From the NCBI GenBank assembly GCA_965208105.1, contig OZ242318.1, positions 3,584,001 through 3,648,000 of the forward strand: a DNA stretch of 64,000 nt, read 5' to 3'. The stretch is from Candidatus Latescibacterota bacterium (GTDB taxonomy: Bacteria; Latescibacterota; UBA2968; UBA8231). A program made the translations under genes and the position numbers. The notes below the pieces were generated by a model. It searched no databases, was not told where the DNA came from, and saw only the letters and a list, made by a program, of their open reading frames with translations. Below, piece after piece: positions 51,141 to 64,000 of the stretch. Each line of letters begins with the position of its first letter. Positions within the stretch are counted from its first letter, which is position 1.

Positions 51141-52235
51141 TCACTTTCTTCCTTCGAGAAGGTCCAGGTACTGTGCCGCGGTTTTTTCCCAGGAGTACTC
51201 GCGCCGGACGTAGCCGCGGGCTTCGGCGCGCTTGGCTTCCCTTTCGCGCTCGGGCAGGGCGTAGTAGCGGTGGATCTCGCCGACAAAGCTCGGATAATCG
51301 TTGGGTTCTATCAAGTAGCCGCCTTCGCGCACGCTCTCGACCAGGGCGTCCACCGCGAAAGCCACCACGGGGGTGCCGGTGTACATGCTCTCCAACTGGG
51401 TCATGCCGAAGCCTTCCGCGTCGTTGGGAGTCGGAACGTTGGGAAAGATGAAGAGGTCGGCGCTCTGGCGCAGCATGGCGATGGTTTCGTCGGAGGGGGA
51501 CTCGAGGAGAACGACGCGGTCCTGCAGCTCCGGCTTCCCGCTCAGGGCGCGGATGCGTCCCAGGTCGGGGCCGGCGCCGCCGATGACGAGGCGGATGTCG
51601 GGATCGAGCAGGGGCATGCCCTTCTCCAGGAATGCGGCCACTCCCTTGCGCGGGACCAGGCGGCCGAAGTTGAGCAGGATGCGGTCCCGGCCGAAGCGCA
51701 GCCCGTGGGTCCGCTCGAATCGCTCCCGTATGAGGCCGCACTGCTCGTCGGCAAGGACCAGCGCCTCCACCCCCAGGTAGACGATGGTGATTTTCTCCGC
51801 GGAGATGCCTGCCCGCACCGAGATCTCGCGGGAGTGGCGGCTGATGAGGACGACGTGGTCGCAGGCCTGGGCGCCGCGGCGCATGAGGCCGCGGGCGAGC
51901 CGGTTGCCGTAGGCCATTTCCAGGCCGTAGATCGTGACCACGAAGCGGGCGCGGGCAATGGGCCGCAGGAGAGGTGCCAGCGCCCCGACCACCCCGTCGC
52001 CGAAGTAGACCGCGTCCACCCGCCTCAGCAGCAGGTCGAAGAAAGCCCGGACGAAGGCCCAGGGCAGAAACCAGAGCAGGTGAATCTTCCACTGGCGGCC
52101 CAGCGCCACCAGCCGCACCGGGCGCCGGGCGCTCAGCCGGGTGTAGAGGTTGTGGCAGTGGACCTGGATGCCCCCGACGGAAGGGGGGTAGCGGCGGGTG
52201 ATGAACAGGATACGGGTGCCGGGGCTGGATGACAT
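51141..52235 (-). CDS. glycosyltransferase family 4 (GT-B)
   Basis: YPPSVGGI, GRLVPRKG, EGFG...LES (EX7E), GTPVV. Confidence 0.92.
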   Translation of the reverse strand: MSSSPGTRILFITRRYPPSVGGIQVHCHNLYTRLSARRPVRLVALGRQWKIHLLWFLPWAFVRAFFDLLLRRVDAVYFGDGVVGALAPLLRPIARARFVVTIYGLEMAYGNRLARGLMRRGAQACDHVVLISRHSREISVRAGISAEKITIVYLGVEALVLADEQCGLIRERFERTHGLRFGRDRILLNFGRLVPRKGVAAFLEKGMPLLDPDIRLVIGGAGPDLGRIRALSGKPELQDRVVLLESPSDETIAMLRQSADLFIFPNVPTPNDAEGFGMTQLESMYTGTPVVAFAVDALVESVREGGYLIEPNDYPSFVGEIHRYYALPEREREAKRAEARGYVRREYSWEKTAAQYLDLLEGRK

Positions 52236-52316
52236 GAAAGGGAATTTCTGAAATTGGCCCCTCGGACTCAAGGGCAACACCCGAAAGGAATTGCCGCGGA
52301 AGCCGTGCCGCCGGGG

Positions 52317-53186
52317 CTAGTGCCCCCCGTGGGACTCCATCCCGTGCTCGTGATGGACGGCGCTGGATTCCACGTAGTAGAGCACGTAGGCCAGGGCGAT
52401 TCCCAAAAGGAGGGATATGATGAGCTTGCCGCGGTCGTGGCCGTGGAATTGGATCTCGGGCAGCAGGTCGCTCAGGGCGATGCAGAGGAAGGCTCCGGCG
52501 GCAAAGGACAGCACGTAGCCGACTATCGCTCCATGTTCCGGACCCAGCAGCTCCACCCCCGTGAAACTAGCCAGGGCTACCAGGGGACAGAGCATGGCGA
52601 AGCCGACGTTGGCCGCGGTGCGGGACCGGGGGCTGTGTCCGGCGGACTTCATCATGCCGATGATGGAGTAGGCGTCGAGGGGCTTGTGCAGCAGTATGGC
52701 GAGGAATACCCCCAGCCCGACCAGCACCACTTCGTCGGAATGGGGCGGGCCAATCTGCATGCTGGTACCCAGGGCGATCCCTTCGGTCACGGTATGCACC
52801 CCGAGGCCGAGGACGACGCCTACCAGGCTGCGCGAATGGACGACGGAACCGCCGTGGTCGCGCCGGTCGTAGAGATCCTTGGCCTCGGCGCTGAAGTCGT
52901 GCTGGTGGTACTGAAAGATGCGCAGCAGAAAAATCATGAGGACCATGCCGAACACCATCCATCCAACCACTTTCTCTATGATTGCAGGTCCGGTAAGGCG
53001 ATCGATGCTGTGGGGCAGAAGGTGAAACATGGCGATGCCGAGGATGAAACCGGCCACGAGGCTCATGACCACCTGGGTGCGGGTGTGGGTCATGTTGCCC
53101 ATGGCCGCCAGTTTGCCGCCGCCGATGGAGACGGCGAAGATGGCGGCGCAATAGGCGAGCAAGACCAGAAAAGTATGTATGTCCAT
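52317..53186 (-). CDS. ZIP-family metal transporter
   Basis: FHLLPH, His loop YHQHD, VHTVTEGIALG, LLHKPLD, AAGAFL..ALSDLLPE; His-rich tail HHEHGMESHGGH. Confidence 0.92.
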   Translation of the reverse strand: MDIHTFLVLLAYCAAIFAVSIGGGKLAAMGNMTHTRTQVVMSLVAGFILGIAMFHLLPHSIDRLTGPAIIEKVVGWMVFGMVLMIFLLRIFQYHQHDFSAEAKDLYDRRDHGGSVVHSRSLVGVVLGLGVHTVTEGIALGTSMQIGPPHSDEVVLVGLGVFLAILLHKPLDAYSIIGMMKSAGHSPRSRTAANVGFAMLCPLVALASFTGVELLGPEHGAIVGYVLSFAAGAFLCIALSDLLPEIQFHGHDRGKLIISLLLGIALAYVLYYVESSAVHHEHGMESHGGH

Positions 53187-53292
53187 GATGGCCGTGATCA
53201 AAAACTACGTGGGATAGCGGTCGTCCCCCGGATGGGAGGGAAGGAAGAGCGCGCCAGGAGCGAAGAAGCTGGTCTCGGCAAGGGATTTCCGC

Positions 53293-53781
53293 TCAGAAGA
53301 ACAGCATCAACAGCACGATGCTGCTCAGCCCGCCGAGCATGAACCCCGCGGTGCTGACGACGCCCGAGGCCATGGAGAAGTCGGCGATGCGGAAGGTCTG
53401 GGGCCCGATGGTGAACATCACCTGGGAGCGGTCGATCTCCCCCTCGACGAATCCCTTCAGGCCCTCCTCGGCGCTGTGAGCCTCCTTGACAGAGACCAGG
53501 GCTACGAGAATCATGGTCATGGCCGAGGCCAGGGTCCCGATCGCGAACATGAGCAGCGTAGCCAGGGCGAACCAGTGGTAGGCGGCGTCCTCGTTCCCCG
53601 ACGAGGAGCTCATGAACCCGATGATCAACGCCGCACCGCCCGCATTGCCGAGCAGCAGCAACCGGGCGGACTCGGTGATCAGCCTGAACATGGTGCCGCG
53701 GCGCATGGCGACGACTTTGTAGAGCTCTCGCAGCCACTCTTCACCGGTTTCTTCGCCGGAAAATTCATCCACCTTTTTCAA
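53293..53781 (-). CDS. small membrane protein of unknown function (three hydrophobic helices)
   Basis: TTG start 3 nt after the upstream stop, with GGAGG RBS; LLLGNAGGAAL motif. Confidence 0.75.
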   Translation of the reverse strand: MKKVDEFSGEETGEEWLRELYKVVAMRRGTMFRLITESARLLLLGNAGGAALIIGFMSSSSGNEDAAYHWFALATLLMFAIGTLASAMTMILVALVSVKEAHSAEEGLKGFVEGEIDRSQVMFTIGPQTFRIADFSMASGVVSTAGFMLGGLSSIVLLMLFF

Positions 53782-53784
53782 TGG

Positions 53785-54900
53785 CTAATTTCCTCCGAGA
53801 TCGGTCAGCCTGATGTAGCTCGAACCCGTATTGGTGCCGGGCTCGAATTCGAGAGTCCAATCGTCGATCGCCACCGGCCCGGACGCCAGGGCCTGATCCA
53901 TGAAATTCTGGCGCGTCAGCTGGTCGCCCATGCGCTCCAGCACGGCTATGACGAAGCGGCCCAGAATGTAACCTTCGAGGGACACCTCGTTGATGGTGTA
54001 ATCCGCCGTCTCCGTCCCCGCCGCCGCGGACTCGAGAGCTCGTTGGAAACTCCGCACAACCGGCCTGCTGGTGTCGTCGGCGTCGGGCATCACCTCGGTG
54101 ACCAGGATCCGGTCGTTGGGCTCTGTGACCTCCTTCTTGAGCTCGTAGGACAGGACGAAGGACAGGTTGGCGATTATGTACTGGTGGCCAAGGGAATGCG
54201 CCAGGTTGATGATCTCCGCGTTGGCGGCGTAGGCTCCGACGATGAGGATGGCGTCCAGGTCGGCCTTGGCCAGGGCGAAGAGGCTCGCCTGGACGGCGTG
54301 GGTGTTGCGCGAGAAGGCGGTCTTCGCCAGAATGGGGACGCCGTGTCCGTCGAGAACCGTCTTGTAGTTTCTCAGGACGGAACGGCCGAAGGCGTCGTCC
54401 TGGTAGATGATCCCGAAGCGGTTCTTGCCGCGCTCCTGCAGGATGTGCTCCACCAGCAACCGGGTCTCGTCGAAATAGCCCGCCCTCAGGTTGATGACGT
54501 TGGGGAAGCGCTTGGTGTTGCGCAGGAAATCGGCGCCGGTGAAGGGTCCGACGAAAGGAATCCCCGCCGTCCTCAGCACGGGGGCGATGCGCTTGGCGGT
54601 CGGCGTCCCCACCCCGCCGATGACGGCCAGCACCTCGTTCTCGGCGGCGAAGCGTTCGGCGTTGGCCGCGGCCTGCTCGGGCTCGTAGGCGTCGTCGAGG
54701 GATACCAGCTCCAGCGGCCTGCCGTTCACCCCGCCGCGCGCGTTGCACTCGCGGAAGGCCGCCTCGATCCCCGCCCGGTAGTTGAACCCCAGGCGCTCGT
54801 TCGGCCCGGAGAAACAGGCACTCTGGCCGAACACCACGGCCTCCGCGGCGGCCGTGGAGACCGCGGCCGAGAGCACGAGGAGGAAGGAGGCCAGCAGCAT
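53785..54900 (-). CDS. type 1 periplasmic binding protein (LivK-like fold) with no adjacent ABC genes
   Basis: Signal peptide; FGQSACFSGP, GGVNGR, LDDAYEP, VGTPT, NLRAGY..E, YQDDAFG, SLEGY. ATG 1 nt after the previous stop. Confidence 0.88.
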   Translation of the reverse strand: MLLASFLLVLSAAVSTAAAEAVVFGQSACFSGPNERLGFNYRAGIEAAFRECNARGGVNGRPLELVSLDDAYEPEQAAANAERFAAENEVLAVIGGVGTPTAKRIAPVLRTAGIPFVGPFTGADFLRNTKRFPNVINLRAGYFDETRLLVEHILQERGKNRFGIIYQDDAFGRSVLRNYKTVLDGHGVPILAKTAFSRNTHAVQASLFALAKADLDAILIVGAYAANAEIINLAHSLGHQYIIANLSFVLSYELKKEVTEPNDRILVTEVMPDADDTSRPVVRSFQRALESAAAGTETADYTINEVSLEGYILGRFVIAVLERMGDQLTRQNFMDQALASGPVAIDDWTLEFEPGTNTGSSYIRLTDLGGN

Positions 54901-54901
54901 G

Positions 54902-56245
54902 CTAATTACCCTTGCCACCGGCTTTCGCTTTCTTTTCGGCGCCAACTGTTTTCTCCTTCTTCGCGCCGCCGCCTTCCTTCTTTTTCTTCTCCCCGGTTGC
55001 CAGGTTCTCGATCATCGGCTTTTCGTCGGCCTCCTGGCCCACGGGCTTGCCGCTCACGTGGCGGTGGGAGAAGATGGACGGGGTGTCGAAGATGAGCGAC
55101 CGCGGGTTGGCGATGCTCATGTGGTCCCGTTCGGCGCGGGTCTGATGGAACTGGCCGTCGAGCAGGAGCTTGTCGGCATGGATGCTTTCGATGGCGTGCA
55201 CGTTCTGCATGGTGGCCGTCGAGAGCAGGGGCCTGTCTTCGATTTTTTCACTGGTGGGAGGTGCTTCCAGCGCCATGTGCGCCGGGGTGAACCCGCCCGC
55301 TCCGTCGATCATGTTGATGTCGATGGCCGACTGGTTGCCCGGATTGACCGCCGCCAGGCTGGCCTCCGCAAAGATCTTGCGCATCCGGTCCCAGTAGCGC
55401 GTGATTCCCACGTGGGCGGGCTGTTTGCGGTATTCGGCCAAAAGCGCCGAGAAGGCTCCGGCGGTGCTCTTCGCCTGTACCACGCGCTCCCTGGCCTTGG
55501 CCTTGGCGTTGATCACCATGGCCTTGGCCTGTCCACGGCTGTGGGCGATGAGCTGCTCCCTTTTGCGGTTGGCGTCGCTCACCGCCTTGACGCGGTCGGC
55601 GAAGGCGTCGCTCACGTCCCGGAAGGCGGCGATGGTTTCCTCGATGGGGCGCACGTCGAGGATGTCGAGGGAGACCAGCTCAATCCCGATGTCGCGGGAG
55701 GCGAGGCGCTCGGTGATCCGCTCGAACAGTTTGCTTTGAATGATGTTTCGATTCGAGGTGAGGATCAGGTCGATGAAGTTCTGCCCCAGGATATTGACCA
55801 GCTCCTCCCTGGAGATCATGGTCACCATGGCGAGGGGGTCGGAGGTGACGAACAGGTAGTTCCTCAGGTTGTCGACCTTGTACTGGAGGGCCACGTCCAC
55901 TTCGAGCAGGTTCACGTCTCCCGAAAGGATGGTGAAGTTGACGGAATCGCCCTCCTTGCTGGAAACCTGGTGGCGGATGATGCGCTTGACCTTGTGGACG
56001 TAGGTCTTCTCGATGACGGGAATGCAGTAGTGGATGCCGGGCCCGATGTTGGCGTCCACCACCCGGCCGAAGCGGGTGCGAACGCCCTGCTCCTCTTTCT
56101 TGACGACGTAGAACCCGCTGGCCAAAAACCCGGCGACGACGGCTGCGGTGACCGATTGCAGGATGCGCCGGTGGTGCTTGCCGAGGAAGTCGAATGCGGC
56201 GTAGATGACCCGCGTGCTGGGCGGCAATGACTGTCGTTCGCTCAT
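54902..56245 (-). CDS. HflK-like SPFH (band 7) protein with a long C-terminal extension
   Basis: One TM helix; SGFYVV..EEQGVRTRFG, PGIHY, LSGDVN, AFRDV; coiled coil; YWD.M. About 130 extra C-terminal residues. Confidence 0.88.
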   Translation of the reverse strand: MSERQSLPPSTRVIYAAFDFLGKHHRRILQSVTAAVVAGFLASGFYVVKKEEQGVRTRFGRVVDANIGPGIHYCIPVIEKTYVHKVKRIIRHQVSSKEGDSVNFTILSGDVNLLEVDVALQYKVDNLRNYLFVTSDPLAMVTMISREELVNILGQNFIDLILTSNRNIIQSKLFERITERLASRDIGIELVSLDILDVRPIEETIAAFRDVSDAFADRVKAVSDANRKREQLIAHSRGQAKAMVINAKAKARERVVQAKSTAGAFSALLAEYRKQPAHVGITRYWDRMRKIFAEASLAAVNPGNQSAIDINMIDGAGGFTPAHMALEAPPTSEKIEDRPLLSTATMQNVHAIESIHADKLLLDGQFHQTRAERDHMSIANPRSLIFDTPSIFSHRHVSGKPVGQEADEKPMIENLATGEKKKKEGGGAKKEKTVGAEKKAKAGGKGN

Positions 56246-56266
56246 TTCAGGCGGACTCCCCAATTG

Positions 56267-57154
56267 TCAGGGCCTTGCCTTGGTGTCGAGATACTTGAAA
56301 AGCTCGTTGTCGGCCGGCAGCATGAGGGTGGTGTTGCGATCGATTATGAGGTCGTAGCTGTCGAGGGCGCGGACGAACTTGTAGAACTCCGGATCCTTGC
56401 GGTAGGCCTTGCCCAGCAGGGCCATGGCCTCGGCCTCGGCCTCGCCCAGAATGGCGGTGGCCTCGGCGTGGGCGTCGGCGATCAGCTTCTCGTGCTCGTT
56501 GATGGCCAGGGCCTCGATGCGCAGGGCCATCTCCTCGCCCTCGCTGCGATAGCGGGCGGCGATGCGCGCGCGCTCGGCGATCATGCGGCGGATGACGCTG
56601 GGCCGGTTCTCCACCGGCAGGGTGTACTCGACGATCCCCGCCTCCATTACCTCGATCCCGTAGCTCTCCCTGGCGACGGGGGCGATTCTGGCGAGAATCG
56701 CCCGGGAGGCCTCGTTGAGGTCCTCGTGCTCCAGCCCCAGTCCGATGAAGGCGTCGAGGGACTTGTTGCTGATGATGATTCCGCTGCTGGAAAGGTAGAG
56801 GTCCTGCAGCCGCTCCACCGCGCTCTGGCCGGTGCGGATCGCCTCGACGAAGAGAATGGGGTCCACGGTGCGCCAGAGCAGGTAGCCGTCGACGAGGATG
56901 CTCTTCTGGTCTTCGGTGATCAGCTCGTGGGGGATTCCGGTCAGGGTGTGAATGCGGCGGTCGACCTTGTAGATCTTCGAAATGGGGCGCGGCCACTTCA
57001 GGTGAAACCCGGGCTGCCGCACGGGGGGAGAAATCTTGCCGAAGTGAGTCAACACCCCCTGCTGGGTCTCGTTGACGATGTAAAAACTGTCGTAGGCGAT
57101 GGCGGCGGCGATGGCGATGATGGCCGCGGTGATCGTCTTTCTCTTCAGCTTCAT
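56267..57154 (-). CDS. HflC-like SPFH (band 7) protein
   Basis: FYIVNETQQGVLTHFG, PGFHLK.P, RMIAERAR.A...RSEG, G.AEA, DPEFYKF.R.L..Y. Confidence 0.92.
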   Translation of the reverse strand: MKLKRKTITAAIIAIAAAIAYDSFYIVNETQQGVLTHFGKISPPVRQPGFHLKWPRPISKIYKVDRRIHTLTGIPHELITEDQKSILVDGYLLWRTVDPILFVEAIRTGQSAVERLQDLYLSSSGIIISNKSLDAFIGLGLEHEDLNEASRAILARIAPVARESYGIEVMEAGIVEYTLPVENRPSVIRRMIAERARIAARYRSEGEEMALRIEALAINEHEKLIADAHAEATAILGEAEAEAMALLGKAYRKDPEFYKFVRALDSYDLIIDRNTTLMLPADNELFKYLDTKARP

Positions 57155-59445
57155 TGCCCTTTACTCCCGTGGTGTCGGTCCCCGCCGGCCGCCCGGGCAT
57201 TGCTCTTCTTCCACAGGGCGACCTTCTCGAGGCTCTTCTTGTTGGGCACGATGATCTTGGGGTTGCCGGCCAGGGCGGTCTCCAGCTTCTCCCGCCACAG
57301 CATGTTGCGCAGGACCCCGGGGGCGCTGCGCACGGCGTCGGACACGAGGGAGATGGCCTCGGCCTCGGCCGCCGAGGTCTTCACCTTCCGGTAGGCCTCG
57401 CCCTCCGCCTGCTCCACCTCCCACTCGGCGTTGCCGTGCGCCTGGGGGATCAGGGCTACCAGGAAGCGCTGGGCGTTGACGATGATCCGCTCGCGGTCCT
57501 CCTGGGCGCTCGATACGTCCCGGAAGGCGCTGACCGTCTCGGCCACCGGCTTGATTTCCAGCAGGTTCACCTTGACCAGGTCCACGGTCCTGAGCACCGG
57601 GTTCTCCAGGTGGATGTCGGAGGCGAAGGACTCGGTGATGTGCTCTTCCAGGGTTACGCGATGGACGTTGAGCAGTTGTTCCAGATCCCGGGCGGACACG
57701 AAGGAACGCAGGTGGGCCTTGACCACGTCCGTTATGATCTTCTCCGGGCTGGTGGTGCGGTAATGATACTCGTAGGGGTCCTCGACCCGGTACTGCACGT
57801 TGACGGTGAGGGTGAGGAGGTTGAGGTCTCCGGACACGTAGTCGTGGGGGGCGTCGCTCATTATGGACTTCACCTCCCGCACCGGCCACTTGTCCACCTG
57901 GACGAAGGGCCGGGGGGCGAGGTAGTGCAGGCCGGGCTGCAGGTCGCGCCAGTGGACCTTGCCGAAGAGCAGGCCATAGCCCACCGATCCGGGAGGCACG
58001 GTGGTGAAGCCGCTACCCAGAAACAGGACCAGGGCCAGGGCCCAGAGGATCAGCCCCAAGGGCGCGGCGGGAGAGACGACGCCCCAGGCCGAACGGCTGC
58101 GGGTCAGACGGCGCCAGGTCCGGCGCCAGGGCCGGGACAGAGGCCGGAGATTGAGCAACAGGTCCTCCCAGCCGCTGCGCATGGCCCCGGCGCGGAAGCG
58201 CCAGACGATAAGGGCGATGAGGACAAAGGCGCCTCCCCATTGCATGAACTGCAGGGTGGGCGAGTCCGAGGCGACGAGATTCACCGAGATGCTCAGGCCG
58301 GCGGCGAGGAGCAGAATGTCGATCAGGATGCCGAGGGCGGCGGTGACCGCGATGACCGCGGTGACGTAGATGGAAGCGAAGCGGGCGCCGAACTGGCTGA
58401 CGATGATGGCGATGGTTCCCGTGTTGGTGGCCGGACCGGTCATGAGAAAGATCAGCGCCGCGCCCGGGCTGACCCCCTTGGCCACCAGGGCGGCGGCGAT
58501 GGGGGTGCTGGCGGATGCGCAGATGTAGAGCGGAATGCCGATGAGCACCATGACGGGATAGGCCAGCCAGCGGGCGTACTCGTGGGCCATCAGGTCGCCG
58601 GGGATGACCAGGAAGAGCACTCCTCCCAGGGCCACTCCCACCAGCAGGGCGAAGAGGATGTCGTCGGCAATCTCGACGAAACCGTAGCGGAAGATGTGCT
58701 TGACGACCCGCCTGAAGTCCAGCTCCGGGTGGTCGGCCGGGGCGGCGGAGGAATCGTCCGCTGCGCCCTGCGCGGCAAGGGACTCGCGGTAGAAGTCCGG
58801 CTTCACCCAGGATGTGGTCTTCCAGCGGCCGGCCGCCAATGCGACTGCCTTCAACCAGTGAACGGTGAGCCTCTTCAGCATCGAGGGGCTGACGTAGCAG
58901 TCGTCACTGTCGGCGATGAGAGCCTCATGGCCGTGGTCGTGATTGTGGTCGTGATCATGGTCGTGTTCGTCATGCTCATGGCCGTGATCGTCATGGCCGG
59001 CCTCTGATTCGTCCCCTTTTCTGATGAGGCCGATGCAGAAGATGCCGGCGACGACCGCGGTGATGAAGCTGATCACGGGCCGCACGATGGCGACGACCCA
59101 TCCGAAGAAGGCGTTGGTGACCAGGATGGAGTCGGCCCCTGTTTCAGGGGCGGTTATGAGAAAGGACATGCAGGAGGAACGGGAGGCGCCCTTGCGGCGC
59201 ATCTCGGCAACCACCGGAACCACGGAGCAGCTGCACAGGGGCACCGGTACGCCGATGGCCGAGCTCATGCTGACCGACTTCAGGCTGTCTTCGCGGAGCC
59301 AGCGCAGAATGGCCTGGCGGGATATGAATACATGGATCAGGCCGGAGAGGAACAGCCCCAGAAGCAGCATGGGGGCCAGCAGCAGGAAGGACGACCAGAG
59401 GAAATCGAAGAACCTGGTGAATATGTCAAGGAAGCTCAGGGCCAA
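57151..59445 (-). CDS. DUF318/ArsP-type (SO_0444-like) metal permease with a His-rich loop, fused to a C-terminal HflK-like SPFH domain
   Basis: Permease motifs PLCSCSVVP, FLITAPETG, PLYICASASTPIA and GPATN; 11 His in 23 residues (58927-58995). Then a TM helix and HflK motifs SGFTTV, PGLHY, SGDLN and AFRDV.SA.ED.ER. Single uninterrupted ORF; GGAGG RBS before the TTG start. Confidence 0.9.
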   Translation of the reverse strand: MALSFLDIFTRFFDFLWSSFLLLAPMLLLGLFLSGLIHVFISRQAILRWLREDSLKSVSMSSAIGVPVPLCSCSVVPVVAEMRRKGASRSSCMSFLITAPETGADSILVTNAFFGWVVAIVRPVISFITAVVAGIFCIGLIRKGDESEAGHDDHGHEHDEHDHDHDHNHDHGHEALIADSDDCYVSPSMLKRLTVHWLKAVALAAGRWKTTSWVKPDFYRESLAAQGAADDSSAAPADHPELDFRRVVKHIFRYGFVEIADDILFALLVGVALGGVLFLVIPGDLMAHEYARWLAYPVMVLIGIPLYICASASTPIAAALVAKGVSPGAALIFLMTGPATNTGTIAIIVSQFGARFASIYVTAVIAVTAALGILIDILLLAAGLSISVNLVASDSPTLQFMQWGGAFVLIALIVWRFRAGAMRSGWEDLLLNLRPLSRPWRRTWRRLTRSRSAWGVVSPAAPLGLILWALALVLFLGSGFTTVPPGSVGYGLLFGKVHWRDLQPGLHYLAPRPFVQVDKWPVREVKSIMSDAPHDYVSGDLNLLTLTVNVQYRVEDPYEYHYRTTSPEKIITDVVKAHLRSFVSARDLEQLLNVHRVTLEEHITESFASDIHLENPVLRTVDLVKVNLLEIKPVAETVSAFRDVSSAQEDRERIIVNAQRFLVALIPQAHGNAEWEVEQAEGEAYRKVKTSAAEAEAISLVSDAVRSAPGVLRNMLWREKLETALAGNPKIIVPNKKSLEKVALWKKSNARAAGGDRHHGSKGQ

Positions 59446-59499
59446 TCAGCGACCTCCAGTTAAAAAAGCCAATCGAAGCTGCAACTGACTGTTGGGCAA

Positions 59500-59590
59500 C
59501 CAAATGAATTCCAATGTTACAGAAGTATTAGAGACCAGTTAATATAGTTAACTATTGTTGTTTATACCGTCTTTTTTTCGTGAAGAAATT
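59500..59590 (-). promoter_or_regulatory. AT-rich promoter region with a 12-bp perfect palindrome (candidate metalloregulator site)
   Basis: ATAGTTAACTAT at 59544-59555, overlapping the direct repeat AGTTAA-tat-AGTTAA (59537-59551). Strongly AT-rich against GC-rich flanks. Confidence 0.5.
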
Positions 59591-59611
59591 ACAAGTCGAT
59601 GGCGCCGGAGC

Positions 59612-62600
59612 CTATGGCGCCGCGTCCCGGTCCACCTCCACCGCAAACCACTTGTAGAGCGCCGGCAGCACCAGCAAGGTCAGCACGGTGGAGCTGACCA
59701 GGCCGCCGACCACCACCGTCGCCAGAGGCCGTTGCACCTCGCTGCCGGTGCCGGTGGAGAACAGCAGGGGGATCAGCCCCAGGGCGGTAGTCAGGGCGGT
59801 CATGAGCACCGGCCTCACCCGCAGGCACGCCCCCCGGACCGAGACTTCGTCCAAGTCCACCCCCTCGCGGACGAGCTGGTTGAAGTAGGTCACCATCACC
59901 ATGCTGTTCCCCAGGGCGATGCCGAACAGGGCGATGAAACCCACTGAGGACGGCACCGAGAGGTTCTGCCCGGTCAGCCACAGGGCAACCACACCGCCCA
60001 CCAGCGCCAGGGGAATGTTGAGCAGGATCAGCACCGCGTTCTTGAGCGAATTGAAGCTGGAGAACAGCAGCAGGAAGAGGGCGAACAGGGTGATGGGAAC
60101 GACGATGGCGAGGCGCCTGTTGGCCTCCTGCTGCAGGCGGAACTGGCCGCCCCAGGTCACCAGGTAGCCCGGCGGCAGCGCCACCTGTCCGGCGATGGCC
60201 TCCCGGGCCTCGCGGACGAAGGATCCCATGTCGCGGCCGCTGACGTTGCACTGGACGGTGATGAAGCGCTGGCTCTTCTCGCGGGTGATCTGGCGGGGGC
60301 CCACCACCTCCTCGATGCGGGCTAGTTGAGCCAGGGGGATCTGGAGGCCCATGGGGGACTGGACCAGGATCTGGGCGATGGCCTCGGGGCTGCTGCGGAA
60401 CCGGGGGGCGAAGCGCACCAGGATATCGAAGCGCCGGGTCCCTTCGAACACCTGACCCACCAGCTCGCCGCCGACCGCCGCCTGCACCACCTCCTGGACG
60501 TCGGCCACGTTGATGCCGTAGCGGGCGATGGCCTGGCGGTCGACCCCGATGAGCAGCTGGGGGGTGCCGCTGATCTGGTCCACCTGGACGTCGGCCGCTC
60601 CGGCTACCCCGCCGACCACCTGGGCGATTTCGTCGGCCTTGAGCTTGAGCACGTCGAGGTCGTCCCCGAAGAGCTTGACGGCCAGCTCGGCCCGCACTCC
60701 TTCCAAAAGCTCGTCCACGGTCATGGCGATGGGCTGGGTGAAGTTGGTCAGCACCCCGGGTATGTCCCCGAGCTCGGCGCGGACGAACTCGCGCAGCTCT
60801 TCCTGGCTGCCGGCGTTGCGCCACCGGTCCCTGGGCTCGAGCAGGAGAAACATCTCGGCGCTGTTGATGGGGTCGGTGTGGGCGCCCACTTCGCCGCGGC
60901 CGATGCGCGATACCGCGCCGGAAATTTCGGGGATCCGCAGCAGTCGCCGTTCCACCAGCATGGTGATCCGGGTGCTCTCCTCCAGGGATATGGAAGGGGC
61001 CATGGTCAGGCGCAGGACCATGGTGCCCTCCTGCAGGGCGGGCGTGAACTCCGACCCCAGGCGCGGGAAGATCACCATCCCGATAAGAAGGAGGATCCCC
61101 GCCGATCCCAGGGCCCAGAAGCGGTGGGCCACGAAGCGGGCGACCAGGGGCCGGTATGCGGCCACCAGCCGCCGCGTCATCCAGCTTTCCCCGGGGGGTG
61201 TGCCGTCATTGCCTGGCTTTGGCGGGCGCAGCACCAGGTTCGACAGTACCGGGGCCAGAAAGAGGGCGAAAACCAGGGAGCCCAGCATGGCCATGGCCAC
61301 GGTGTAGGCCAGGGGGCGGAAGGTCTTGCCCTCGACTCCCTGGAGAGTGAACAGGGGCAGGAACACGAGAATGATGATGAGGATGGCGAATACGATTGGA
61401 CGTCCCACCTCCACGCAGGCGCGGGCAACGGCCCTGCCGCGCTCCTCCTCCGCCTGCGGCTGGCGCAGCGCGCGGTCCACGTTCTCCACCACGACGATGG
61501 TGCCGTCCACCATCATGCCGATGGCGATGGCCAGGCCGCCGAGGGACATGAGGTTGGCCGAGAGGCCGAAGTAGTTCATCCCCAGGGTGGCGAACAACAC
61601 GGAAAAGGGAATGGACAGGGCGACCACAAGGCTGGGGCGGACGCTGCCCATGAAGAGGATGAGCACCAGGGTGACCAGGACGATGCCCTGCACCAGGGCA
61701 TCGGTGACGGTCTTGACGCAGGCGGCCACCAGGGTCTTCTGCTCGTAGTATGGCACCAGCCGCACCCCCTCGGGCAGGATGCTGTTGATCTCCTCCATCC
61801 TGGCCTCGACCCGCTCGATGACGGTGGAGGAGTTGGTGCCGAAGAGCTTTATCACCATGCCCGCCACCACCTCCTCCACTCCGTTGCGGGTCTGCACCCC
61901 GCGGCGGATGGCTCCGCCGATGCCCACCCGGGCAACCTGGTCGAGGAAGACGGGGGTCCCGTCGACGGCCTTGATCACGATGTTCTCGATGTCCTCCACG
62001 GTGGAGGCCAGGCCCACGGAGCGCACCACGTATTCCTCGGCGTCCTTCTCGATGAACTGGGCGCCGACGTTGAGATTGTTGGCCTCGATCTGGGCGATGA
62101 CGTCGCGCAGGGTCACCCCGTAGCGCAGCAGGGCATGGGGGTCCACCACCACCTGGAACTGCTTCTCGTGGCCGCCGATGCCGAGGATTTCAGTGACTCC
62201 GGGAACGGTCTGCAGATGGAACTTGACCAGCCAGTCCTGGATGGTGCGCAGCTCTTCGAGGGAGTAGTTGCCGGAGCTGTCCTCCAGGTAGTAGAAGAGG
62301 ACCAGGCCCATGCCCGTGGAAATAGGTCCCAGCGCCGGCTCGCCGAAGCCTTCGGGTATCTGTTCCCAGGCCTCGTGGAGGCGTTCGCTCACCAGTTGGC
62401 GGGCGAAGTAGATGTCCACCTCGTCGGCGAAGTAGATGTTGACCACCGAGAGGCCGAAGTTGGAGACGGAGCGGATGTTCTCGATGCCCGGCAGGCCGTT
62501 CATCACCGTCTCGATGGGGTAGGTGACGTAGGTTTCGATCTCTTCGGGAGCCAGACCTTCGGTGACGGTGAATACCTGGACCAGGTTGGGCGAGACGTCG

Positions 62601-62719
62601 GGGAAGGCGTCCACCGGAAGCTGGCGGTAGCTGAAATAGCCGCTGGCCACCACCACCGCTCCCAGGACCAGCATGAGCATGCGGTTGCGCAGGGCCAGGT
62701 GAACGACGCGCTCGATCAT
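59612..62719 (-). CDS. czcA: CzcA/CusA-family heavy-metal RND efflux permease
   Basis: LPVDAFPDVS, ARQLV.ERL, ANLMSLGG, EGKTFRPLA, RVRPVLMTA, GSEVQRPLATVVVGG. Confidence 0.93.
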   Translation of the reverse strand: MIERVVHLALRNRMLMLVLGAVVVASGYFSYRQLPVDAFPDVSPNLVQVFTVTEGLAPEEIETYVTYPIETVMNGLPGIENIRSVSNFGLSVVNIYFADEVDIYFARQLVSERLHEAWEQIPEGFGEPALGPISTGMGLVLFYYLEDSSGNYSLEELRTIQDWLVKFHLQTVPGVTEILGIGGHEKQFQVVVDPHALLRYGVTLRDVIAQIEANNLNVGAQFIEKDAEEYVVRSVGLASTVEDIENIVIKAVDGTPVFLDQVARVGIGGAIRRGVQTRNGVEEVVAGMVIKLFGTNSSTVIERVEARMEEINSILPEGVRLVPYYEQKTLVAACVKTVTDALVQGIVLVTLVLILFMGSVRPSLVVALSIPFSVLFATLGMNYFGLSANLMSLGGLAIAIGMMVDGTIVVVENVDRALRQPQAEEERGRAVARACVEVGRPIVFAILIIILVFLPLFTLQGVEGKTFRPLAYTVAMAMLGSLVFALFLAPVLSNLVLRPPKPGNDGTPPGESWMTRRLVAAYRPLVARFVAHRFWALGSAGILLLIGMVIFPRLGSEFTPALQEGTMVLRLTMAPSISLEESTRITMLVERRLLRIPEISGAVSRIGRGEVGAHTDPINSAEMFLLLEPRDRWRNAGSQEELREFVRAELGDIPGVLTNFTQPIAMTVDELLEGVRAELAVKLFGDDLDVLKLKADEIAQVVGGVAGAADVQVDQISGTPQLLIGVDRQAIARYGINVADVQEVVQAAVGGELVGQVFEGTRRFDILVRFAPRFRSSPEAIAQILVQSPMGLQIPLAQLARIEEVVGPRQITREKSQRFITVQCNVSGRDMGSFVREAREAIAGQVALPPGYLVTWGGQFRLQQEANRRLAIVVPITLFALFLLLFSSFNSLKNAVLILLNIPLALVGGVVALWLTGQNLSVPSSVGFIALFGIALGNSMVMVTYFNQLVREGVDLDEVSVRGACLRVRPVLMTALTTALGLIPLLFSTGTGSEVQRPLATVVVGGLVSSTVLTLLVLPALYKWFAVEVDRDAAP

Positions 62720-62740
62720 GGGTCTGTTCCCCTCCGCACC

Positions 62741-63970
62741 TCAGTGCGAGTGGCCGTCTCCGAAAGCCCCTTTGGCCAACTGGGATTTGAGGATGAAGGC
62801 GCCGCGGGCGACGTAGGACTGCCCCGGCTCCAGACCGGCGACAATCTCGGAGTGGGTGGAGTTGCTGCGGCCGACGCGGACGGGGTGGGGAACGAATCCT
62901 TCGCCGGTTTCGACGAAGACCACGGCATGATCATCGATGGTCTGAACGGCCGATCCCGGCACCAGGACGGGCACCTGGACCGCATCCCCCGAGATGGTCG
63001 CGGTGACGAAGGAACCTGGACGCCAGCGGCCCTCCGGGTTGCGCAGCTCGATGCGCACCGGGGCGGTGCGGGTGGCCTCGTCCACGATGGGGCTGATGTA
63101 GTCCACCGAAGCCGTGGTCGACGGGCCACCCTGCCCGGCCTCGATGTGCACGGTCTGGCCGACGCGCAGGAAGGGCAGGTCCTTCTGGTAGGCGGTCAAC
63201 ATCACCCACACCGAGCGCAGGTCGGCCACCACGAAGGCCTCTGAGTCTTCCTGCAGGACCTCGCCCCGGACGATGTGCTTGCTGATGACGGTGCCTGAAA
63301 GGGGAGCCGTCATCGGGTAGCGGGTGAAGCGCTCGCCGTCTTCGAAGGACAGCCCGGCCAGGTAGTCGCCGGAAAATCCCAGGGACTGCAGCTTCTGCTC
63401 GGCCGCCTGCAGCTCGATGAGAGCCTCGGCCAGTCCGTTCCTGGCCTCCTGGAACTGCCGCTCCGAGGAGATGGACTGGTCCCAAAGCGATTTCTCCCGC
63501 TCGAAGGTGGCTCGCGCAAGCTCCAGCCGCTCCCGGGAAACAAGGTAGGCCGATTTCAGCTCCGACAGCTCGGGGCTGTCGAGCACCGCCAGGACCTGGC
63601 CTCGCTGCACCGGGTCGCCGATATTGGCGTGGATATCCCGGGCAACCCCCCCAATCCGGGGAACGATGTGGGCCACCAGATCGGGATTGACCTGCACCTC
63701 GCCGGGGGTATGAATCTGAACCGCCAGGCGGCCGGCGGCGGCCTCTGCGACCTCGATGCCGAACTCGGTCCGTTCCGCGGCGCTCAGGCGAATTCCCTCC
63801 TCGGGGTCCTTCCCTCCTTCTCCGGCGTGACCTTCCTCCTCGTGGTGGCCCCCCTCCTCCGCCCAGGCCGGACCTTCCAGGAAAGAAACGGCAGCACGCT
63901 CTCCCGGGGCCGAAAGAGCCGTCTGCAATGCGATGAATCCCAGGACCGCGATGTGGACTCGCATTCTCAT
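62741..63970 (-). CDS. czcB: CzcB-family periplasmic adaptor (membrane fusion protein)
   Basis: His/Glu-rich N-terminus (GHHEEEGH), IVPRIGG, APLSGTV, VADL..VWV, VDEATRT; C-terminus GDGHSH. Confidence 0.9.
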   Translation of the reverse strand: MRMRVHIAVLGFIALQTALSAPGERAAVSFLEGPAWAEEGGHHEEEGHAGEGGKDPEEGIRLSAAERTEFGIEVAEAAAGRLAVQIHTPGEVQVNPDLVAHIVPRIGGVARDIHANIGDPVQRGQVLAVLDSPELSELKSAYLVSRERLELARATFEREKSLWDQSISSERQFQEARNGLAEALIELQAAEQKLQSLGFSGDYLAGLSFEDGERFTRYPMTAPLSGTVISKHIVRGEVLQEDSEAFVVADLRSVWVMLTAYQKDLPFLRVGQTVHIEAGQGGPSTTASVDYISPIVDEATRTAPVRIELRNPEGRWRPGSFVTATISGDAVQVPVLVPGSAVQTIDDHAVVFVETGEGFVPHPVRVGRSNSTHSEIVAGLEPGQSYVARGAFILKSQLAKGAFGDGHSH

Positions 63971-64000
63971 TCTCCTTGGGGATGGGTGGGCGGGGGAGCG

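Follow-up and report, generated by a model that had tools for sequence, protein, structure and literature searches.

A metal permease fused to an HflK-type protein: a conserved gene cassette that may encode a dedicated ring for zinc exporters

Why would a bacterium join a metal permease, within a single polypeptide, to a subunit of an HflK/HflC-type assembly? The question is raised by a locus in a 64,000-nucleotide (nt) stretch of contig OZ242318.1 from a Candidatus Latescibacterota bacterium, hereafter the window, which covers genome positions 3584001-3648000 of a genome consisting of a single 4.85-Mb contig. Two units lie on the minus strand of this locus. The first is a czcCBA efflux operon; the second, past a 166-nt AT-rich gap, is a five-gene cassette followed by a ZIP gene. 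The resulting six-gene operon runs, in order, from a permease-HflK fusion through an HflC-type gene, a free HflK-type gene, a gene for a periplasmic binding protein of the Peripla_BP_6 family and one for a 162-residue membrane protein to ZIP. A first-pass annotation of the window had proposed that an SPFH cage, paralogous to HflK/HflC, organizes or encloses metal transporters here. Our analysis leads to a related and more specific reading, which we regard as probable: the cassette encodes a dedicated HflK/C-type ring that holds zinc exporters and serves as the export arm of zinc homeostasis. Gene families were assigned by Pfam and NCBIfam profile scans of eight window proteins with curated cut-offs, and the operon contains the following features.

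57151..59445, minus strand: permease-SPFH fusion, 764 residues; PF03773, NF033936 and Band_7 in one open frame.
58126..59445, minus strand: SO_0444-family permease portion of the fusion, residues 1 to ~440; PF03773 153.5 bits, NF033936 324.5 bits (cut-off 300).
58024..58080, minus strand: extra transmembrane helix joining permease to SPFH (residues 456-474), from hydropathy.
57151..58023, minus strand: HflK-type SPFH and coiled-coil part of the fusion (residues 475-764 and stop); Band_7 57.4 bits, TIGR01933 139 bits (cut-off 159.4).
56267..57154, minus strand: HflC-type SPFH protein, 295 residues; TIGR01932 154 bits (cut-off 134.4).
54902..56263, minus strand: free HflK-type SPFH protein, 453 residues (TTG start) or 447 (ATG at 56245); TIGR01933 144.5 bits (cut-off 159.4).
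53785..54945, minus strand: type-I periplasmic binding protein, Peripla_BP_6, starting at TTG 54945 or ATG 54900; PF13458 168.4 bits.
53293..53781, minus strand: 162-residue membrane protein with three predicted helices and no family match.
52317..53201, minus strand: ZIP-family metal transporter with a His-rich C-terminus; PF02535 67.5 bits (cut-off 35.1).

The N-terminal part of the fusion is an SO_0444-type permease. ArsP_1 (PF03773, equivalent to DUF318) spans residues 10-376, and positions 2-349 of the 351 in the NF033936 profile are matched. An alignment of 26 sequences shows invariant cysteine motifs at C71, C73 and C309, and a His/Asp-rich loop at residues 147-176 (window 58918-59007) is likewise conserved. 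A linker of residues 382-455, with 11 lysines and arginines against three aspartates and glutamates by charge count, precedes the extra helix, after which Band_7 covers residues 482-659. By the positive-inside rule, this K/R-rich linker suggests that the SPFH part of the fusion is periplasmic, as it is in HflK. The joined architecture is common among relatives: both Pfam domains are present in 116 of the best 120 database clusters (62-92% identity). Public annotation hides the feature, because the named fusion clusters are labelled just 'SO_0444 family Cu/Zn efflux transporter'. A separate database protein of 796 residues (P0018; 77% query coverage) has ArsP_1, Band_7 and Zip domains on a single chain and may be another deletion product, joining fusion to ZIP.

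All three SPFH proteins of the cassette combine a Band_7 domain with a coiled coil, as judged from Pfam and from alignment to the Escherichia coli chains. Residues 33-328 of the free HflK-like protein align to E. coli HflK 79-366 (7vhp_E, E 3.5e-29), and fusion residues 468-738 to HflK 85-348 of the same chain (E 4.2e-21). The HflC-like protein matches E. coli HflC (7vhp_G) at E 1.1e-34, with the alignment reaching residue 329 of 334, and it scores above the TIGR01932 cut-off. Hydropathy places an N-terminal anchor helix at its residues 8-26, with a K/R-rich stretch in front. The N-terminal helix of the free HflK-like protein falls below the hydropathy threshold; in this protein a motif near the N-terminus and an extension at the C-terminus (residues ~373-400) are conserved.

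These proteins form a paralogous set, as the first-pass annotation had supposed, and they are not the only HflK/HflC pair of the genome. Five Band_7 genes are present, three in the window and two in a pair at C1:434007-435727, 3.2 Mb from the cassette. The canonical hflK of that pair scores 278.6 bits, over the TIGR01933 cut-off, and lies next to an hflC-like Band_7 gene with clpP and clpX beside them. Within the genome, the SPFH part of the fusion shares 32% identity with the free HflK-like protein and 26% with the canonical HflK, and the HflC-like protein is 36% identical to the canonical HflC. Neither ftsH nor hflX occurs in the window, again in line with the earlier claim: two full-length ftsH genes and hflX are all far from it, at genome positions 350547, 1388502 and 2599562. 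In genus g19, genomes with and without the cassette contain a separate open frame of ~328 residues that is 31-33% identical to the fusion SPFH part, and we take it to be the housekeeping hflK.

The arrangement recurs well beyond this genome. A fusion-based scan with one genome per species returned 57 loci, 36 of which carry the fusion; three relatives and the window bring these to 40. The HflC-like, HflK-like, binding-protein and small-membrane-protein genes follow downstream in constant order in 35 of the 40, and in 34 of 34 that have at least 5.2 kb of downstream sequence; the other five end at contig ends. A reverse scan from the small membrane protein, limited to the best 80 of 140 relatives (all at least 62% identical), gave 79 new loci, a set that partly overlaps the first, with the full cassette in 66 of the 69 that extend at least 6.6 kb upstream. 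Across loci the junctions are overlaps or gaps of a few bases. The first five genes are a fixed cassette. Conservation of SPFH genes beside a metal transporter, on which the earlier proposal depended, is found in every informative locus of these synteny scans.

The two remaining members of the cassette are also obligate parts of it. The binding protein has a signal-peptide-like N-terminus, is of the LivJ type and has 4kv7 as its best solved relative (E 1.2e-44); its gene adjoins neither an ABC permease gene nor an ATPase gene. In 78 of 79 loci the small membrane protein comes directly after it, and wherever it was seen the HflK-like gene stands in front. Because it was never seen without the HflK-like gene, and was lost together with the SPFH genes in one Pseudomonadales locus (L149), it appears to belong with the scaffold and not with the permease. 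A complex prediction with residues 56-453 of the HflK-like protein and 36-386 of the mature binding protein gave a score of 0.00 against a mark of 0.32 and weighs neither way. The small membrane protein has no Pfam or NCBIfam match and falls in Atlas clusters named only 'hypothetical'. It is 162-164 residues long in most loci, with a highly conserved acidic N-terminal segment, and may belong with the permease or ZIP because it is retained in L149. As a guess, the binding protein could be a periplasmic ligand or metal sensor and the small protein a membrane adaptor.

The direction of transport is suggested by other proteins that carry the same C-terminal extension. A search with the SPFH part against 1.84 billion representatives gave 3634 relatives at E up to 0.001, of which 150 were considered. 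Sixty of the 150 were taken, namely those of at least 485 residues in which the match starts after about residue 200, and the other 90 were left out. By Pfam, the 60 proteins contain Band_7 (59), ArsP_1 (37), Cation_efflux (16), P-type ATPase hydrolase (6) and E1-E2_ATPase (4). NCBIfam assigns examples to the CDF transporters and to the heavy-metal P1B-ATPases (TIGR01525, 560 and 535 bits), and all of these end in an HflK-type part. Like fusions are thus present in two further exporter families. A genome scan with one CDF::HflK protein as query found three full-length loci, in Planctomycetota and Victivallaceae; the remaining 77 loci match the HflK part only. In all three, an HflC-type gene (37-38% identical to that of the window) and then an HflK-type gene follow, and none of the three contains a binding protein, small membrane protein, ZIP or Znu gene. 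In the Victivallaceae locus (L175), the CDF::HflK-HflC-HflK trio is flanked by two genes for PPIC-type peptidyl-prolyl isomerases (L175:3904-5976 and L175:10668-11183). Because the ArsP_1, CDF and P1B-ATPase families all move metal out of the cytoplasm, export is preferred over import.

The nature of the metal is indicated by the permease family together with its neighbours, which point to zinc, perhaps with copper. According to the accessible text of the report on SO_0444, that permease is required for growth under ZnSO4 or CuCl2 stress and its gene adjoins one for a ZntR-like regulator (PMC3219624). A DUF318 gene is described as important under zinc stress in S. loihica, as far as the available part of that preprint goes (bioRxiv 10.1101/072470). 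The Zn/Co/Ni set named in the first-pass annotation is accordingly kept for zinc; no specific pointer to cobalt or nickel was found.

Taken together, the sequence evidence is consistent with the following mechanism. An SO_0444-type exporter, moving Zn(II) or copper from cytoplasm to periplasm, would be extended via the one extra helix into a periplasmic HflK-type domain. The fusion, the HflC-type protein and the free HflK-type protein would assemble in the inner membrane as an alternating ring like that of HflK/HflC, in which each K position takes either the fusion or the free HflK-like protein. A ring could then be tuned to carry more or fewer tethered exporters. It would confine these zinc exporters to a single bounded patch of membrane, beneath a wall of periplasmic SPFH domains. 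The cassette would serve as the export arm beside an adjoining importer (ZIP here, ZnuABC elsewhere), and in the genome of the window CzcCBA could carry periplasmic metal on across the outer membrane.

A bolder form of this proposal is improbable in our judgement. Here the SPFH ring would close into a dome, and up to a dozen tethered exporters would discharge Zn(II) into an enclosed periplasmic chamber that holds the binding protein. Were this so, a protein-walled periplasmic compartment would shield other periplasmic proteins from exported zinc and, according to need, pass it to CzcCBA or return it to ZIP or ZnuA. The design would then cover the CDF and P1B-ATPase fusions too and amount to a general bacterial compartmentalizing of metal export.

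The surroundings of the cassette in the window are made up as follows.

63967..64000, minus strand, running off the window end: 3' end of czcC, outer-membrane factor; OEP PF02321, E 3.4e-43.
L011:968-2611, minus strand (L011 position p is window position 62999+p): full czcC frame; its stop overlaps the czcB start by 4 nt.
62741..63970, minus strand: czcB, RND periplasmic adaptor, His-rich at the C-terminus and in a stretch near the N-terminus; HlyD_D23 E 4e-47.
59612..62719, minus strand: czcA, heavy-metal RND pump; ACR_tran 974.5 bits, TIGR00914 1110.7 bits (cut-off 701.45).
59446..59611, minus strand: AT-rich intergenic gap of 166 nt, presumed promoter/leader of the cassette operon; 39.8% G+C, compared with 64.5% over the whole locus.

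Because czcC starts past the window end and overlaps the czcB start, the efflux operon is czcCBA; pump, adaptor and outer-membrane factor follow one another directly, at junctions (overlaps or gaps) of 4 to 21 nt. CzcB scores 138.8 bits with TIGR01730 (cut-off 94.9) and 226.5 bits with TIGR00999, under the cut-off of 319.3. Upstream of czcC, past the window end, an 838-residue open frame (L011:2448-4964, minus strand) runs across the 5' part of the czcC frame. Pfam gave no match for it, and it may be either an unrecognised gene or a shadow frame. At the other end of the locus, ZIP reached no subfamily in the NCBIfam scan. The genes, minus-strand orientation, AT-rich promoter region and His-rich segments (in CzcB, the permease loop and ZIP, all visible in the translations) that had been described for this locus were recovered in their places. 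So were the junctions, allowing for the choice of start codon. Fusion and HflC-like gene meet in an ATGA overlap, and the HflC-like stop lies 3 nt (TTG) or 21 nt (ATG) before the HflK-like start. Between the HflK-like stop and the binding-protein start there is 1 nt (ATG) or, with the upstream TTG, a 44-nt overlap. The small membrane protein begins 3 nt after the binding protein, and ZIP follows 91 nt after the small membrane protein.

Across loci, zinc is the conserved theme of the neighbourhood, and czc is not. The czcBA genes had been counted as part of the unit, but CzcA (at >40% identity) occurs near the cassette in no more than 11 of 40 and 20 of 79 loci, which makes it an occasional neighbour. 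Membership of ZIP is upheld in part: it is present here, and 13 of 40 and 53 of 79 loci have it after the small membrane protein, but it is facultative, and other genomes have znuABC instead. ZnuA, ZnuC and ZnuB occur in 17, 16 and 15 of the 40 loci, and at least one Znu gene, with Pfam-confirmed examples, in 14 of the 79; in neither set does any locus have ZIP and Znu genes together. Further recurrent neighbours are a FUR-family gene (6 loci), a TonB-dependent receptor (4) and OEP (6).

Several observations weigh against a ring of zinc exporters. The usual neighbours of the cassette are importers (ZIP and ZnuABC), and the exporter CzcA is infrequent. In several loci ZIP begins only 12-18 nt past the small membrane protein, so exporter and importer are probably co-transcribed, which is awkward for pure efflux. 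Neither a metal-responsive regulator nor a recognisable operator turned up for the cassette. Both HflK-type parts score below the TIGR01933 equivalog cut-off (139 and 144.5 against 159.4). An AlphaFold2 model of the whole fusion from a 26-row alignment has a mean pLDDT of 56.8 and a pTM of 0.35, too poor for topology or a fold search, so the topology is read from hydropathy and charge counts by themselves. Three loci depart from the fixed order. One in Opitutales (L134) is missing the HflC-like gene alone. L149 has permease, full-length small membrane protein and ZIP, and is without the SPFH genes and binding protein. In a locus from Anaerolineae (L095), only the HflK-like and binding-protein genes are found upstream, with nothing recognisable before the HflK-like gene.

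The importer neighbours favour a different account, in which the cassette is a device for zinc scarcity or uptake. It would be switched on when zinc is short, and the permease would either work inward, in the manner of TRAP or TTT transporters, or feed zinc to periplasmic proteins while ZIP or ZnuABC scavenge. We consider this unlikely, though it accounts for a good deal. An importer stands beside the cassette in most loci, and ZIP and Znu exclude one another as if they were substitutes. ZnuA lies directly upstream on the same strand in eight loci. The FUR-family and TonB-dependent receptor genes suit the same account, as do two AT-rich palindromes just upstream of the fusion in a Gemmatimonadetes locus (L067), and a binding protein encoded with a small membrane protein and a large permease recalls the gene logic of TRAP/TTT systems. 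Against it stand the efflux phenotype of the permease family, in the accessible part of its description (PMC3219624), and the sister fusions, which involve CDF and P1B-ATPase exporters. TRAP/TTT-like uptake is further opposed by the linkage of the binding protein to the HflK-like gene: in L149, where the SPFH genes are missing, the small membrane protein is still present and the binding protein is gone. Both proteins also fall outside the TRAP/TTT families.

Regulatory sequences also bear on this alternative. The genome has its own zinc-uptake operon at C1:2845115-2850200 (L094:2115-7200), consisting of znuC, znuB, znuA, a 145-residue open reading frame without family and a FUR-family regulator gene. 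Its promoter is overlapped by a 20-nt Fur-type palindrome. Genome-wide, this box has only three sites at up to 2 mismatches, all near 2.85-2.87 Mb, among them two further sites (2 mismatches) 15-16 kb from the znuCBA-zur promoter. In the window it has 0 matches at up to 3 mismatches, a result that tells against control of the cassette by zinc shortage and also lends nothing to a zinc-export arm. In Nitrospinota-type loci, znuA has an AT-rich box of which no copy precedes the fusion; a separate promoter-like site is present there, again contrary to a shared scarcity switch. Five loci (L051, L052, L053, L055 and L091) have a conserved promoter-like site, TTGACA-17 nt-TAACTT, ~230 nt upstream of the fusion. 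It is followed by a conserved leader of ~100 nt with a hairpin and a stretch able to pair with the ribosome-binding site.

The gap upstream of the fusion in the window contains the palindrome ATAGTTAACTAT and the stretch GTAACATTGGAATTCATT, the latter partly common to a same-genus genome; the 12-nt palindrome of the gap is not retained in the same-genus genome. A scan of the gap for the sigma-70 consensus left the minus strand without a site, and Rfam (E up to 1, positions 52000-64000) gave two chance-level matches only. Just before the ribosome-binding site of the fusion, at 59467-59490 on the minus strand, lies a weak terminator-like hairpin of nine pairs, three of them G-C, followed by a T run; it may be an attenuator, or chance. 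The 7-mer TTTCATT occurs in 16 of 71 de-replicated upstream regions, the window included, against 2.5 expected, in a sample from which kinship was only partly removed. Its longer form, TTGAAACATTTTCATTG, shows no repeats elsewhere in three genomes beyond a reversed-pattern control. TTTCATT is not taken to be an operator.

To our knowledge, the only well-established biochemical role of HflK and HflC is to bind and modulate FtsH, and this invites a second account, in which the paralogous ring still recruits FtsH, so that the fused exporter is brought close to the protease and its amount is set by regulated proteolysis and not by scaffolding itself. The three cassette proteins keep HflK/HflC-like sequence over SPFH domain and coiled coil, and two full-length ftsH genes are available in the genome. 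The window itself is without ftsH, however. Among neighbour clusters common to at least 4 of 36 loci, with 10 of the 17 listed clusters checked by Pfam, none is ftsH-like, and a canonical hflKC pair is already available for FtsH. We therefore judge FtsH-linked turnover to be distinctly improbable. That the genes have no joint function, being chance or island neighbours with a fusion produced by gene calling or assembly, is scarcely credible: the assembly is of the metagenome type with 8% estimated contamination, and czc and ZIP are truly variable neighbours, but open frame and order recur in the informative loci of both scans and across ten named phyla, nearly all of the best database clusters (116/120) have both domains, the gene junctions overlap, and the genome is a single contig.

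With the alternatives weighed, a ring that holds zinc exporters remains the reading we favour, and the history of the cassette appears to be one of spread, gain and loss. After removal of duplicates and incomplete genes, 72 distinct fusion proteins cover ten named phyla: Pseudomonadota (29), Latescibacterota (13), Gemmatimonadota (6), Acidobacteriota (4), Verrucomicrobiota (3), Nitrospinota (2), Binatota (2) and three others with one each, besides 10 unlabelled. In a FastTree phylogeny of the fusions the phylum labels cluster, with 14 changes against a minimum of 9 and 30.7 on shuffling. Even so, no fewer than four changes each are required by the starred branches for Latescibacterota and Pseudomonadota, and the starred clade of the window, with 12 rows, mixes 8 from Latescibacterota with 3 from Gemmatimonadota. 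Across phylum records the fusion is 55-92% identical to the window protein. These patterns suggest that the cassette spread horizontally, with metagenome binning errors still a possible contributor.

At closer range, the full fusion is present in five of 41 related genomes, the window's own counted. Nine others have only the permease part or a cut form (frames of 401-469 residues in seven, stop-broken in G001 and G040), and the rest have weak matches only. Three genomes of another family show the identical six-gene order beside a different czcBA (CzcA 46% identical), and in several of the related regions the permease adjoins ZIP. Deletion scars are visible in two genomes. In same-genus G001 (L029:8577-11101), czcCBA and the permease are followed by a remnant of the small membrane protein (residues 86-162) and then by ZIP; in G040 (L028:8849-11733), SPFH residues 1-89 and then binding-protein residues 229-312 lie between permease and ZIP. 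In the 57-locus scan, ZIP is present in 11 of the 21 loci without the fusion, so permease and ZIP are read as an older pairing. The block of SPFH, binding-protein and small-membrane-protein genes enters this pair by insertion or leaves it by deletion, being gained or lost as a unit. Two Binatia genomes, those of L060 and L085, contain a second, divergent cassette on the opposite strand (L158:10018-16262 and L162). Its permease is 45%, SPFH part 30%, HflC-type protein 38% and HflK-type protein 25% identical; znuA, znuC and znuB follow in line, and it is without binding protein or small membrane protein.

Metatranscriptome contigs from three libraries in two studies match the operon at 90-99% likeness and reach into each of its six genes without covering them in full, with depth in 24, 20 and 24 of 30 bins for the three libraries. 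These RNA contigs bridge four junctions, namely ZIP/small membrane protein, small membrane protein/binding protein, binding protein/HflK-like and HflC-like/fusion. They are a weak sign that the cassette is expressed, tempered by possible DNA carry-over and by the many contigs that come from relatives. Part of the RNA signal must be assigned to the latter, because 36 of the 58 contigs of library X18 are only 90-95% alike. The RNA runs contain 0.09-0.13 of the sampled words of the stretch, and sponge-metagenome runs from four studies 0.34 to 0.62.

The clients and functions of most bacterial SPFH scaffolds are unclear in the accessible parts of the literature, FtsH with HflK/C excepted. In the cassette, the gene itself names the client: a transporter covalently joined to one subunit of the proposed ring. 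Such a join has arisen with three unrelated metal-exporter families. It offers an experimental handle on the effect that an SPFH ring has on a membrane protein it holds, whether stabilizing, clustering, gating or enclosing, and it would mean that zinc homeostasis has a further, so far unrecognised layer in many bacteria from marine habitats and sponges that have not been cultured. In the full-text literature, with subscription journals and supplements outside its scope, no description of a transporter-SPFH fusion or of the cassette was found, and the 2009 SPFH survey (PMC2636767) contains 0 occurrences of permease, transporter or zinc.

Among known systems, TRAP and TTT transporters are similar in gene logic only, with a secreted binding protein, a small multi-helix protein, a large secondary permease and no ABC ATPase. 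Unlike theirs, the cassette proteins lie outside DctP/Q/M and TctC/B/A: Pfam and NCBIfam give Peripla_BP_6, a family-less small protein and an ArsP_1 permease, and the binding protein tracks the SPFH genes. The PacL1/CtpC metal efflux platforms of Mycobacterium tuberculosis are a likeness of concept, in that a scaffold beside a zinc exporter forms high-molecular-weight complexes that stabilize the pump (PMC9374683). The accessible text of that study places the PacL scaffold, a DUF1490 and not an SPFH protein, on the cytoplasmic side, and reports that flotillin is not required and that the P1B-ATPase pump is unfused (PMC9374683); DUF1490 (PF07371) matches none of the eight window proteins in the Pfam scan. 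In PaFlo5-PaFlo6-PaFlo7 of Pseudomonas aeruginosa, three SPFH paralogues share one operon, as in the cassette (PMC13086221). In the available portion of that paper, the authors ascribe its patchy distribution to horizontal transfer and report no clear phenotype; the same portion mentions no transporter fusion and no HmtA, and zinc once, and by this description the operon is set apart from the cassette (PMC13086221).

SO_0444 itself is matched by the first ~440 residues of the fusion, which pass NF033936 and conserve the two cysteine motifs and the His-rich loop. In the accessible description SO_0444 is stand-alone, in an operon with a ZntR-like regulator (PMC3219624), whereas the cassette version is fused to SPFH and the shared neighbour clusters of cassette loci hold no regulator but the FUR-family gene. 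The closest comparison is with the HflK/HflC-FtsH assembly of E. coli (PDB 7VHP, 7WI3, 9CZ1/9CZ2 and 9PAW). As there, the cassette has HflC- and HflK-type proteins (one and two, respectively) with SPFH domain and coiled coil, and with a predicted membrane helix in front that stays below the hydropathy threshold in the free HflK-like protein; its proteins align to the E. coli HflK and HflC chains at E 1e-21 to 1e-34, and its K and C genes are adjacent and translationally coupled. It differs in having three SPFH subunits instead of two, one K being the C-terminal half of a metal permease, in HflK-type parts that fall under the equivalog cut-off, and in a context free of ftsH and hflX. It differs also in its obligate binding and small membrane proteins, and in the separate canonical hflKC that its genome keeps. 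HflK/HflC and SO_0444 are known families; what appears to be new is their combination, a proposed HflK/C-type assembly with a covalently attached client that is not a protease.

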